Origin: Vicugna vicugna
Taxonomy: Eukaryota
Length of the DNA: 64,000 bases
Assembly: GCA_013265495.1 (NCBI GenBank)
Contig: MU057991.1
Location: forward strand, 1-64,000
Direction of reading: 5' to 3'
Part shown: positions 9,647-64,000 of the stretch, in pieces
Numbering within the stretch: the stretch's first letter is position 1
Layout of the letters: each line of letters starts with the position of its first letter
The notes under the pieces: model-generated
The model's database searches: none
What the model was told of the DNA's origin: nothing
The model's input: the letters and a program-made list of their open reading frames with translations, nothing else
Program-made: the position numbers and the translations under genes

Positions 9647-9811
9647 GTATATGTTTTACACACACACACACACACACACAGAATATATCCCCGTTAAATT
9701 CTGTGAGGGGGTGGAACTAAGTAGGGGCATTAAAAACTTCCCCCCCAAAAAAAGTAAAATGAAAAAGAAACTTTCCCCCAAACCTCTCCTTTTTGCAAAA
9801 AAAAAATTCTT

Positions 9812-13691: not shown

Positions 13692-13935
13692 CCTGTCTCC
13701 AGGTGGCCGGTCCCCCCCGGGTCCTATGTCTCCAGGTGGCCGGCCCCCCCGGGCCCTGCATCTCCAGGTGGCTGCCCTCCTAGTCCCCCCAGGTGTCTCC
13801 AGGTGCCCCTCCCCCGGCCCTGCGTCTCCAGGTGGCTGGTCCCCCCCGTGTCCTATGTCTCCAGGTGGCTGGTCCCCCCCCAGGCCCTGTGTCTCCAGGT
13901 GGCTGGTCCCCCCCGGGCCCTGCGTCTCCAGGTCA
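13692..13935. repeat. GC-rich minisatellite, ~33-bp unit (ctgYRtctccaggtggctggtcccccccgggcc), about 8 cores
   Basis: tctccaggt recurs at ~13696, 13729, 13761, 13796, 13825, 13858, 13892 and 13925. Four more cores lie at 14402-14510. Confidence 0.92.
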
Positions 13936-14970
13936 CCAGCCCCCACTGTGGTTGCGCTAGGCTGGTCGTAGACGTGAATGGTGACGAAATAAGATCTCCT
14001 GCTCCCCCCTTAGGAGTGTGGATTTTGCTGGTCATTGGGAGATGCTGGTTTTTCATTATCCTGAAGTGCCTGTTGCAGGTCCCATGATATTTGCCTCATG
14101 TCTCATGGACCCCCAGCTTTGTCGCATCCTGAGTGATGGGAAAGAAGTGGTGTGACCTTGCCTCATCGTGTGAAGGGCGTGTTGGGACCGGGGTGGGAGG
14201 GACAGGGTAGGTACCACTCGTGGTCTAGGCGATCGTGGACAGGCCTTTGGGCTCTTCAGAAAAGTTGGAAATCTAGGTTTCTCTGGAGAGTTTCCTTATC
14301 TTAACAGTGCTGTGGGCCAAGCAGAATAAACATGTCCACTGGTGGCCTTTGAAGCTGACCCTTCTCAAGTCACCTGCCAGCAAGGGTTGAGTGAACCTGT
14401 GTCTCCAGGTGGCTGGTCCCCCCCGGGCCCTGCGTCTCCAGGTGGCTGGTCCCCCCCAGGCCCTGCATCTCCAGGTGGCTGGTTCCCCCCGGGCCCTGCG
14501 TCTCCAGGTCGCCAGCCCCCGCTGTGGCTGCGCTAGGCTGGTCGTAGACGTGAATGGTGACGAAATAAGATCTCCTGCTCCCCCCTTAGGAGTGTGGATT
14601 TTGCTGGTCATTGGGAGATGCTGGTTTTTCATTATCCTGAAGTGCCTGTTGCAGGTCCCATGATATTTGCCTCATGTCTCATGGACCCCCAGCTTTGTCG
14701 CATCCTGAGTGATGGGAAAGAAGTGGTGTGACCTTGCCTCATCGTGTGAAGGGCGTGTTGGGACCGGGGTGGGAGGGACAGGGTAGGTACCACTCGTGGT
14801 CTAGGCGATCGTGGACAGGCCTTTGGGCTCTTCAGAAAAGTTGGAAATCTAGGTTTCTCTGGAGAGTTTCCTTATCTTAACAGTGCTGTGGGCCAAGCAG
14901 AATAAACATGTCCACTGGTGGCCTTTGAAGCTGACCCTTCTCAAGTCACCTGCCAGCAAGGGTTGAGTGA
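13819..14970. repeat. 576-bp head-to-tail tandem duplication (13819-14394 / 14395-14970)
   Basis: cgctaggctggtcgtagacg starts at 13955 and 14531, and caagggttgagtga ends at 14394 and 14970. The unique ~440-bp part looks identical by eye. Confidence 0.95.
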
Positions 14971-23199: not shown

Positions 23200-23280
23200 N
23201 NNNNNNNNNNNNNNNNNNNNNNNNNNNNNNNNNNNNNNNNNNNNNNNNNNNNNNNNNNNNNNNNNNNNNNNNNNNNNNNN
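23200..23280. other. Assembly gap (81 N)
   Basis: Run of n characters. Confidence 1.
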
Positions 23281-33323: not shown

Positions 33324-33382
33324 TGTACAGAGGCCAAAAAGCACTGCTGGTATTTCGAAGGACTTTATCCAACATATTATAT
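33324..33382 (+). CDS. VOPP1: VOPP1 coding exon 2 (59 nt; CTEAKKHCWYFEGLYPTYY-I), end of signal peptide and start of Cys-rich luminal domain
   Basis: Acceptor tcttttcttttatttccag| at 33323 and donor |gtaagt at 33383. Translation matches the recalled human/mouse VOPP1 peptide. Phase 0 start, phase 2 end. Confidence 0.96.
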
Positions 33383-39529: not shown

Positions 39530-39984
39530 TGCGGTGGGAAGCCCCATGAAAAGACCAGCAGGACCCCCAGGCAGGGCCACTGCTTTGCCACCCATGCCAT
39601 CATGTTCCCTAGCCCTGCGGTATTATCTTGCTTTTGTGCTTCTGTAAAAGGGCTGGCTTCTAGGAAAGCGAAACGTACCCCTAAGAGTCTATTGATTCCC
39701 AAAGCTCACTCCTGATTGGTTCATTTCTAACACCTCATTTGCATAAAGCTCACTCCTGATTGGTTCATTTGTTACACCTACTCTGCATAGGATGTTGCAG
39801 AATCTTGACTAGTACCCTATAAAATCCTGTGTAAACCCACAGACGGGGTCCAGAGCTTGGAGTGGTAACTCCTCTGGGCCCGCTGGCGTAATAAACCCGA
39901 GTTCTCCAACCCCCCCAGTGTCCCTCGATCTCTTGCCCGGATCCAGGTTGCTGTCACCCTGAGCTGTCACCCTTTGCTGTAACA
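39530..39984 (+). mobile_element. Solo ERV LTR (family copy A; 2 x 44-bp CCAAT/octamer units)
   Basis: TG...CA ends, TATAAAA at 39818-39824 and AATAAA at 39890-39895. Colinear with the LTRs at 53570-53988 and 61977-62705. No clear TSD. Confidence 0.85.
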
Positions 39985-53569: not shown

Positions 53570-53988
53570 TGTGACAGCAACCTGAATCCTGTAGAGAGAC
53601 CAGGTGACACTCGGAGGGTTGGAGAACTCAGGTTTATCACGCTGGCGGGCCCAGAGGAGTTAACACTCCAAGCTCTGGACCCCGTCTGTAGGTTTGCACA
53701 AGCTTTTATAGGGTTTTAGGTTTTGATTGAGTTTGTACCATATGCAAATGAGGGGTGAGAAATTGAGCAATCAGGAGCGAGCTTTGGGGACCCAGTGGAA
53801 TTTTAGGGGTAAATGCAAATGAGGTGTTAGAAATGGACCAATCAGGAGCGAGCTTTTGGGAACCCATGGAATCTTAGGGGTAAGTTTCGTTTTCCTGGAA
53901 GCAAGCCGTTTTTCAGAAGCGCAAAAGCAGGAAGGCAGTGGCCCTGCCTAGGAGGTCTTGCTGGCCCCTTTGTGGCTTTTCCCCTTCA
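53570..53988 (-). mobile_element. Solo ERV LTR (family copy B, antisense; 71-bp duplication with ATGCAAAT + CCAAT-like box)
   Basis: Reverse complement is colinear with copies A and C (ggagaactcaggtttatcacgctggcgggcccagaggagttaacactccaagctctggaccccgtctgt). Octamers at 53742 and 53813. Confidence 0.85.
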
Positions 53989-57570: not shown

Positions 57571-57648
57571 ATGTCGCCCCTTCGAGGACTGCTGTGGCTC
57601 CCGGTGCTGCGTGCGGGCGCTCTCCATCCAGAGGCTCTGGTACTTCTG
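57571..57648 (+). CDS. VOPP1: VOPP1 coding exon 3 (78 nt; I-CRPFEDCCGSRCCVRALSIQRLWYF-W)
   Basis: Acceptor ccctctctcccacag| and donor |gtaggt. Phase 2-2, so it joins exon 2 (AT+A=Ile) and exon 4 (TG+G=Trp) in frame. Carries the CC...CC motif of the VOPP1/WBP1 family. Confidence 0.96.
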
Positions 57649-61482: not shown

Positions 61483-61976
61483 AAATCAGCTTTTTTATTG
61501 ATCGGGAGTGTTTAGTCCTGTGGTTCCTCTGTAATTAAGACGTGCCCTAGAAAGGACGCCTTTTACGTTTTCTTTGTGGGTGGCCGTATGACAACGGGGA
61601 GACGACTGCTGGAACGGAGCGCACGCTTACTCTCCTTGCGGTGCAGAAAACGGGGGGCAGCAGACAGCAAGGAGCAGCCCAGTGTTCAAACAGGACTGAG
61701 AAGGGACCTCCTGTTTTGACTAAGGTGGAGGCGAGGTCAGAGCCACGGACAGGAAAGTCATTGCACCAAGCCTCTGAAGCCAGGAGCCATTGGGATGTGC
61801 TTGAGACAGAAAGCGCACTTTAGAGAGCGTCTCGGTGGGGGTGGCGTGGTCCGGGGGCACCCAGAGCTGGGCAGGCCATGGGACACCTCCACCGGGAACT
61901 GTCCCCGGGGAGAGGGGCCAGGACAGGGCTTTGGGACCTGCCTCTCTAGCCTCGGCCTGAGCTCGGCATGTGCTCT

Positions 61977-62705
61977 TGAGGTGGGACGCCCCAGGAAAAG
62001 ACTGGCAGGACCCCCAGGCAGGGCCACTACTTTCCTGCCAGCACCATCCGGTTCCCTAGCCCGGCGGCATTATCTCGCTTCTGCGCTTCTGTAAAACAGC
62101 TTGCTTCTAGAAAGCAGAACTCACCCCTAAGATCCTGTTGGTTCCCGAAGCTCACTCCTGATTGGTCCACTTCTAACACCTCAGTTGCATAAAGCTCACT
62201 CCTGATTGGCCCACTTCTAACACTTCATTTGCATGAAGCTCACTCCTGATTGGCCCACTTCTAACACCTCATTTGCATAAAGCTCACTCCTGATTGGTCC
62301 ACTTCTAACACCTCAGTTGCATAAAGCTCACTCCTGATTGGTCCACTTCTAACACCTTGTTTGCATAAAGCTCACTCCTGATTGGTCCACTTCTAACACC
62401 TCATTTGCATAAAGCTCACTCCTGATTGGCCCACTTCTAACACCTCATTTGCATAAAGCTCACTCCTGATTGGTCCACTTCTAACACCTCATTTGCATAC
62501 GGTGTTGCCAAATGTTGCAAAGTCTTGACTGGCAGCCCATAAAAGCCTGTGTAAACGTACAGACGGGGTCCAGGGCTCGGAGTGTTAACTCCTCTGGGCC
62601 CGCCGGCGTGATAAACCTGAGTTCTCCAACCCCCTGAGTGCTGCTTGGTCTCTCGCCCGGATCCAGGCTGCTGTCACCACTGAGCTGTCACTCTGAGCTG
62701 TAACA
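61977..62705 (+). mobile_element. Solo ERV LTR (family copy C) ending 26 nt upstream of VOPP1 exon 4
   Basis: TG...CA ends. Probable 6-bp TSD tgctct (61971-61976) / cgctct (62706-62711), differing by one CpG-type transition. Colinear with copies A and B. CATAAAA at 62538 and GATAAA at 62610. Confidence 0.88.
62148..62499 (+). repeat. 8 x 44-bp tandem array in LTR U3 (aagctcactcctgattggYccacttctaacacctcatttgcata)
   Basis: Units start at 62148, 62192, 62236, 62280, 62324, 62368, 62412 and 62456. All 8 contain ATTGG (inverted CCAAT) and 5 contain a perfect octamer ATTTGCAT. Confidence 0.97.
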
Positions 62706-62731
62706 CGCTCTGCTGTGCCATTTCGTCCCAG

Positions 62732-62868
62732 GTTCCTGCTCATGATGGGCGTGCTCTTCTGCTGCGGAGCCGGCTTCTTCATCCGGAGACGCATGTACCC
62801 GCCGCCGCTGATCGAGGAGCCCGCGTTCAACGTGTCCTACACCAGGCAGCCCCCGAGCTCCACTCCAG
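62732..62868 (+). CDS. VOPP1: VOPP1 coding exon 4 (137 nt; W-FLLMMGVLFCCGAGFFIRRRMYPPPLIEEPAFNVSYTRQPPSSTP-G), transmembrane helix and start of cytosolic tail
   Basis: Lies in ORF 62715..63080. Acceptor tttcgtcccag| at 62731 and donor |gtcagc at 62869. Hydrophobic TM segment followed by RRR stop-transfer. Peptide matches recalled VOPP1. Confidence 0.96.
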
Positions 62869-64000
62869 GTCAGCCGCGCCCCAGTCCTTGTCTCTCCTCC
62901 CTGCGCTTTCCGCGTCCTTCTGCAAGCCTTTGGAAAGGGCACTGCCACCGAACATGCTCAGAGGGAAAAAAGAATCAGGCCGCCTGTGTTCACTTAAGTT
63001 CTGGTGGTCAGCCCTCCTGTGCGTTTGTGTCGGTAAAAAATGCACCATCTGTTGTGCTGTGTGTCTGTCACCTCATGTAATCGCCTGATTAGCGGTGCGT
63101 CTTTTATGCAGTTCATAGATGCACGTTATTTGCATTTTCCTTCAAGATTATTTCATGTATATATTATTATGTAGAAACAGTTAAGTGCTTGCCTTTCTTA
63201 ATGCTTCTGGACAAAATATTAATTACGTTTCTAAGTGGTGAAATGACACTTAGATATTCTGTCCTGGCTGACCGTTCGCTTTCTTTTGTTTTGCTTTTTA
63301 TTCATTCATTCATTCATTCAGTGTTCATTGTGCTTTGACTGGTATTCTGAGTACTTACAAATAGCGCTGCTACAGACATTTCTGTACAAGTTCCCTGTTC
63401 AGGGAACATTTCCTAAAGTGGTGCCCCAGGGTCAGAAAGAATTTGTGGTTTCTTAATTCGTGTAAAACACTGCTTTAACTACCTAAAACTCCAAGGTACT
63501 GTGGTGGGTAAATTCGAGTCTCCCTTGGGATGCAGCCCGGTTCCCTAGCTTGACAGTTTTCCCTTTGGGGCCTGAGGGGTGCCAGGGGCTCTAGGGGGCT
63601 GGGGGGAGCCCCCTCTGATGTTCAGGGTTGTTACCATCATTTCAGAAGGTGGGAGGAAATGTTTGGAGGAGATGGATAACTTCATGGCATCTATGTGATG
63701 ATGGCTTCATGGTGTATATTTAATCTCTAAACTCATTAACTTTCAGACATTAAATTTCTTCACCTTTTTGTATGTCCGTCACACCTCAGAAAAATTATTT
63801 TCAAAGGAAAAAGAAAGAAGCAGACGACTGAGGGTGGGAAGAGCTCTCTCCTGCTCTTCAGACACAGAGGTGCGGAGATGGACCTTTGCTGACCTGTCTC
63901 TTAACAGTTTTCTTCTGCCAAATAAATTCTCCCCGGGTTTTTTTTTTTTTAAGAAGCATCTTTATTATTTTTTAAAACGTTGCTCAAAAATCTGAATGTG

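Follow-up and report, generated by a model that had tools for sequence, protein, structure and literature searches.

The question raised by this locus is from where the branch point of exon 4 of VOPP1 is supplied in the vicugna, a long terminal repeat (LTR) of endogenous retrovirus (ERV) type being found directly upstream of that exon. The sequence analysed, referred to here as the window, is a stretch of 64,000 nucleotides of Vicugna vicugna (positions 1 to 64,000 of contig MU057991.1, assembly GCA_013265495.1), within which three exons of VOPP1 are found (33324–33382, 57571–57648, and 62732–62868). The last of these, which on the basis of the protein we take to be exon 4, encodes a peptide identical at 46 of 46 residues to VOPP1 of Vicugna pacos (XP_072811644.1), with the protein of Camelus ferus differing from it by one residue. 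Exons 3 and 4 are joined in frame in the alpaca RefSeq model XP_072811644.1, and it is on this protein model that the presumed use of the acceptor in carriers of the LTR is based. The two exons are:

57571..57648, forward strand: VOPP1 exon 3, the last 2 bases of which form Trp64 with the first base of exon 4
62732..62868, forward strand: VOPP1 exon 4, 137 nt, residues 64–110

VOPP1 models of 146 residues in which exon 3 is absent and exon 2 is joined to exon 4 occur in many mammals (P0024, P0025, P0040, P0043, P0047, P0058, P0059, P0088, and P0091), so the exon 4 acceptor can pair with two donors. VOPP1 is also named among the genes of alpaca chromosome 36, in a section on the candidate region of the minute chromosome syndrome (PMC6598621).

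The initial annotation had the LTR ending at 62705, 26 nt before exon 4, and these coordinates were confirmed. The elements at the acceptor are:

61957..61961, forward strand: displaced branch-like CTGAG, with its A at 61960, now 772 nt from the exon
61971..61976, forward strand: left copy of a putative 6-bp target-site duplication, matching 62706–62711 at 5/6 positions
61977..62705, forward strand (sense to VOPP1): solo ERV-type LTR of 729 nt with TG...CA ends and two related copies in the window
62706..62731, forward strand: retained 26 nt of host sequence, comprising the right duplication copy, a weak pyrimidine tract, and the acceptor AG (62730–62731)

The LTR starts with TGAGG and ends with GTAACA, both ends being common to the copy at 39530–39984. 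Host sequence lies on both sides with no internal retroviral region; as the left flank matches outgroup intron sequence (see below) and the right flank is the acceptor, the element is a solo LTR, presumably formed by recombination. The putative target-site duplication is imperfect and ambiguous, with a match of 5/6 when taken as a 6-bp repeat or 3/4 as a 4-bp repeat, and the mismatch in the 6-bp version fits CpG decay. A start of the LTR 6–8 nt further to the left, where the flanks of the two copies look alike, was rejected, as no duplication results.

A branch-like ctgA had been described at -37 of the rebuilt empty site; the motif itself stood up, but its position is -37 only under a 6-bp duplication and -39 under a 4-bp one. 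This CTGAG is the only UnA within 60 nt of the acceptor of the rebuilt site. On the present allele, the 60 nt that precede the acceptor AG hold adenosines at -12, -27, -29, -30, -36, -42, -49, -53, and -56, all of which are LTR-derived except that at -12 (62720), the single internal A of the retained 26 nt, which lies outside any UnA. Of mapped human branchpoints, 90% lie 19–37 nt upstream and 78% are A in one report (PMC4315302), with 92% being A and 83% located at 21–34 nt in another (PMC2367711). An LTR is inserted at this position, and no normal branch adenosine other than those of the LTR is present; with its only A at -12, the retained host segment leaves a normal branch A to be LTR-derived. 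Since every A from -18 to -40 is now LTR sequence, the dependence of exon 4 on the LTR that had been suggested is likely, and the branch point of exon 4 itself is likely to be LTR-derived.

That a real insertion parted the old upstream intron from the acceptor was supported by comparison with other mammals. As a stand-in for the empty allele, database proteins were used whose gene caller had read through the intron. There were 136 proteins with the exon 4 start, with 44 rows having no exon 3 in front or no anchor. From these data 12 non-camelid proteins were chosen by eye, and their upstream parts were back-translated and aligned to the whole window on both strands. The left flank of the LTR was the best window match for three of the 12, while the remaining nine had no match to the flank. 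The region concerned is:

61760..61970, forward strand: host intron 3 sequence formerly adjoining the acceptor, best window match for P0017, P0038, and P0021

Scores against this flank were 32.0 for P0017 (next best 24.2), 37.7 for P0038 (next best 23.2), and 43.5 for P0021 (next best 25.7). From the end of the flank match to the exon the distances in the three species are 35, 91, and 155 nt, the corresponding distances being 62, 120, and 118 nt for the empty model and roughly 800–855 nt for the present allele. When alignments were anchored at the end, the same three proteins scored 28.2, 34.7, and 31.5 on the empty model and 8.4, 4.2, and 3.1 on the LTR allele, with random controls (15 per protein) reaching a maximum of 9.0. 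This later anchored alignment had a longer input and a cheaper gap extension than the first version; a shorter anchored test (last 45 residues, two proteins) gave 3.4 and 4.6, values inside the nulls and not significant. End-anchored outgroup scores were alike under the 6-bp and 4-bp duplication models and did not separate them. P0017 and P0038 have their last 21 residues in common, with an exon peptide equal to that of the named pig protein, and for this shared sequence were counted as one lineage, so that the insertion is supported by two outgroup lineages at the resolution of proteins. A strong match of P0013 at 57684 was set aside as read-through after exon 3. No camelid read-through protein across the insertion site was present among 6, 106, and 0 database matches, and a metagenome scan with the exon peptide returned one unrelated marine locus among 592 stretches. 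A search of sequencing runs gave 24 rows, 20 of them with some of 62706–62900 and 8 with at least half of 17 words, shares that carry no information on junctions.

Two branch candidates within the end of the LTR had been put forward, and both were recovered at the expected positions:

62693..62697, forward strand: LTR CTGAG, branch candidate with A at 62696 (-36), 11–13% of the score
62700..62704, forward strand: LTR terminal GTAAC, best branch candidate with A at 62703 (-29), 42–52% of the score

The absence of any AG between 62703 and the acceptor AG, as had been noted, also held, the last upstream AG being at -36/-35. The score was computed at every position from -45 to -11 with published base frequencies, and is a home-made product of four positions with a step distance prior rather than a trained predictor. 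As a control it picks CTGAC at the acceptors of exon 2 (78%) and exon 3 (93%). At exon 4 the top shares were 52% for 62703, 13% for 62696, and 11% for 62690, with 95% of the score inside the LTR, or 86% with a higher rate of non-A branchpoints, which make up 22% of mapped human sites in PMC4315302. A UnA core at 18–40 nt from the acceptor without an intervening AG is present at both 62703 and 62696. The full yUnAy is absent from all three motifs, that is from the two in the LTR and from the displaced CTGAG, in contrast to the CTGAC of the exon 2 and exon 3 acceptors, with GTAAC having no pyrimidine at -3 and CTGAG none at +1; a purine is found at each of these positions in 21–25% of mapped sites (PMC2367711). 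Folding of the 3′ end of the LTR was no better than that of shuffles (z 1.1). The displaced A at 61960 was rejected as a site still serving the acceptor, being 772 nt away with many AGs between. The AG of CTGAG at 62693–62697 is itself a possible cryptic acceptor which would add 34 nt. An AG within about 8 nt of a branch site is reported not to be used (PMC5378181). We infer that 62703 is the more probable of the LTR adenosines to act as branch point and that normal splicing continues.

From this evidence the following history is proposed. In a camelid ancestor, an ERV would have inserted itself in sense 26 nt before exon 4 of VOPP1, and reduction of this ERV to a solo LTR would have followed. 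The insertion would have moved all upstream adenosines about 735 nt away. The acceptor AG of exon 4 would be unchanged, with U2 branching instead on an A in the last bases of the LTR, for the most part at 62703 and to a minor extent at 62696. That the new site fits would be a matter of luck filtered by selection, as the site before insertion held only weak candidates and most incoming sequence would do as well. Taken as a whole, this account, which is derived from sequence comparison, is one that we hold with moderate confidence.

It had been claimed that the insertion was tolerated through mimicry of the displaced site by the LTR end, and this claim was not supported. The empty site scores only a third of the present allele (9.3 vs. 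30.7), and the best candidate, at -29, is the ordinary terminus of the LTR family and not the motif resembling the displaced CTGAG. Among 12314 random pieces, 77% equaled or beat the score of the empty site and 26% were equal to the present LTR allele by total score. A UnA at -40 to -27 arose by chance in 57% of 8829 window 30-mers set before the retained 26 nt, with yUnA in 39% and TRAY in 17% of the same set. Swapping in the end of the copy at 39530–39984 gave a score of 29.1 vs. 30.7, and the LTR in reversed (antisense) orientation would supply CTCAC at -27 with a score of 71.5. The fit of the branch site is most likely luck rather than mimicry, a wording that overstates a fit for which chance can account.

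The outgroup sequences also bear on what the acceptor used before the insertion. In five of the seven outgroup read-throughs the last codons are compatible with a yUnAy at -18 to -21, as deduced from codons whose third positions are not fixed by the protein. Over its last 46 nt, P0017 could accommodate a yUnAy nowhere else, and for P0065 (titi monkey) and P0029 the A at -19 is certain. The region aligns to the camelid duplication, neither copy of which has an A. When aligned to P0017 and P0038 the displaced CTGAG lies opposite a gap, and in the three outgroup alignments it is gapped or not required, a further point against the claim of mimicry. Branching in other mammals may thus occur at -18/-19, positions at which the camelid lacks an A. 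The simplest history would be one in which the near branch A of camelids was lost first, weak upstream sites were then used, and the LTR site came to be as good or better; with the acceptor already weak before the insertion, the LTR may have improved it. In its strong form, in which a camelid ancestor lost the -18/-19 A and the TAAC core of the LTR repaired a weak acceptor on which the gene now depends, this history appears rather unlikely. The last CA of this terminus (...TAACA) is needed by the integrase. If such repair were general, sense LTRs surviving 15–35 nt upstream of old coding exons would be enriched for T-R-A-C-A ends, and these would form a class of exaptation in which the branch point alone is exchanged. 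A human branchpoint of this VOPP1 intron was not found in seven of the eight supplement files of PMC4315302 (by gene name and coordinate prefix), nor in 11 of the 27 files of PMC5378181.

A strict form of mimicry, by which the LTR CTGAG (A at 62696) takes over by reproducing the displaced CTGAG in both sequence and position, is in our view improbable. The displaced flank and the LTR end do have the 7-mer CTGAGCT in common, one base out of register, for which the chance is 0.23% (144 of 61700 window 16-mers). This coincidence was chosen after the fact, and among 16-mers already having CTGA at that place the sharing rises to 5% (88 of 1680). This 7-mer lies within a U5 repeat of 13 bp and is found also in the copy at 39530–39984 one unit upstream; the last unit of that copy has no equivalent of A 62696, which may be special to the focal copy or its subfamily. 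Both the G at +1 and the position at -36 are unfavourable to CTGAG, as is its share of the score when set against that of 62703.

The LTR can also be viewed as a regulatory element with relatives in the window, the relevant features being:

39530..39984, forward strand: second LTR copy (copy 2), in VOPP1 intron 2, with no target-site duplication seen
53571..53961 (approximate), reverse strand (antisense): third, more diverged LTR copy, with similarity to the focal LTR
62148..62499, forward strand: U3 array of 8 units of 44 bp, units differing by 0–5 bases
62538..62543, forward strand: TATA-like CATAAA, with TATAAA at 39818 in the second copy
62610..62615, forward strand: GATAAA at the poly(A) signal position, with AATAAA at 39890 in the second copy

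The two further copies are 81–87% identical to the focal LTR in well-aligning parts outside the array, copy 2 having identities of 82 and 86% outside the array and two array units to the eight of the focal LTR. Each unit of the focal array carries what we take to be a reverse CCAAT box, and five units also carry what is presumably an octamer, ATTTGCAT. Lying immediately before exon 4, the LTR with this array is a candidate promoter, and between the TATA-like box at 62538 and exon 4 there is no ATG before Met67. GATAAA is common to the focal LTR and the antisense copy, with AATAAA in copy 2, and the weak signal may characterise a subfamily rather than have arisen after insertion. Copy 2, which lies in the sense orientation and keeps both TATAAA and AATAAA, could start or end transcripts. 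At the start of the focal LTR an AG is followed directly by GT (61977–61986), 20 nt downstream of A 61960 of the displaced motif, and this is a possible cryptic or recursive-type splice site. Pattern scans for further copies of the LTR gave no viral matches and three bacterial ones, the latter being taken as chance.

Elsewhere in the window there are at least eight copies, on both strands, of one repeat family about 60–89% alike (3175–61499; for example at 9807, 26624, 28398, 35943, 43338, 50684, and 61319), which we take to resemble L1 3′ ends. Also found are a 104-bp tandem duplication with 97% identity (2708–2911) and a 33-bp GC-rich minisatellite in two blocks (13694–14750), the blocks lying within a duplication of at least 300 bp (13875 and 14451) that is 98% identical. 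A run of 81 non-ACGT letters at 23200–23280 represents an assembly gap.

That the LTR disturbs VOPP1, by partial skipping of exon 4, use of AG 62697 or of AG 61980 at its 5′ end, or an LTR-started transcript reading into exon 4, with VOPP1 translated from Met67, is as improbable as strict mimicry. LTRs lying in sense close to acceptors are typical of mutagenic insertions (PMC3088655), and Alus 25–34 bp upstream of exons raise skipping (PMC6326789). The eight CCAAT and five octamer motifs of U3, with the TATA-like box and the lack of an ATG before the exon, would suit an LTR-started transcript, and proteins starting at this Met are in the database for other mammals (P0081, P0107). UnA sites at -49 and -56 lie 14–21 nt before AG 62697 and would suit its use. 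Against such a disturbance are the intact exon, with all 46 residues equal to the alpaca model, its length of 137 nt, the skipping of which would cause a frameshift, and the weakness of the poly(A) signal, GATAAA.

It is quite improbable that the branch nucleotide has always been in the retained 26 nt, either as C/U at -18 to -26 or as the A at -12, and that the insertion was neutral. Non-A branchpoints do make up 8–22% of mapped sites (PMC2367711, PMC4315302), and the outgroup yUnAy at -18 to -21 falls in the region of the retained duplication copy. However, neither camelid copy has an A there, nearby A sites outcompete non-A sites (PMC4315302), and the retained segment holds 5–14% of the score. 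A rare or private LTR allele, or an LTR misplaced in the assembly, with no fixed dependence in either case, is very improbable indeed: the LTR is known here from one genome, its array units are nearly identical, and a burst of LTR elements is dated to 1–4 Mya in the alpaca lineage (PMC8605555), but the one mismatch in the flanking duplication and the 14–18% divergence from the nearest relative in the window fit a real insertion that is not brand-new.

We return to the preferred reading, that of an LTR-end branch A fitting by luck. If confirmed, it would be a clean natural case in which an old coding exon has exchanged a single core splicing signal for retroviral sequence while keeping the host acceptor, would show how insertions persist in that part of introns where they are most depleted, and would offer a ready minigene for branch-point choice. 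Its scope is one gene and one lineage, with a motif fit that lies within chance. The open-access full text searched gave no report of a transposable element (TE) taking over the branch point alone in an old coding exon, and nothing on the VOPP1 insertion. TE-supplied branch points of new TE exons are already known, and VOPP1 would be a good example and not a new mechanism.

TEs are depleted near exons, LTRs over 1–5 kb and most strongly in the sense orientation and near acceptors, and the same source counts 101 solo LTRs that lie in sense no more than 200 bp from a human exon, survivors being uncommon but existing (PMC3088655). Solo LTRs lying in introns in the sense orientation and acting by way of poly(A) or splice signals have been described (PMC1794541); the VOPP1 element is likewise a solo LTR placed in sense within an intron of a coding gene and differs in that its poly(A) signal position reads GATAAA, a feature that may partly account for its survival. 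Closest in geometry are the polymorphic Alus 25–34 bp upstream of exons of BPIFC and SLC2A9, which like the VOPP1 LTR lie less than 40 nt from the acceptor and displace the branch region. Those Alus raise skipping, an effect that in SLC2A9 is independent of sequence (PMC6326789), whereas exon 4 of VOPP1 looks intact. Closest in mechanism are the inverted Alu exons, for which 154 mapped branchpoints are supplied by the transposon (PMC4315302), the F8 pseudoexon of LTR78/AluJ and the GPR143 pseudoexon in which L1MD3 forms part of the branch sequence (PMC7951965), and the MIR/AluSp exon of BLOC1S2 with its TE-supplied branch sequence (PMC6822395). In all of these, as would be the case in VOPP1, a transposon gives the branch sequence to a spliceosomal acceptor. 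They are however new, alternative, or disease exons with the acceptor mostly inside the TE, whereas in VOPP1 the exon is an old coding one, the AG and pyrimidine tract are those of the host, and only the branch sequence would come from the TE.
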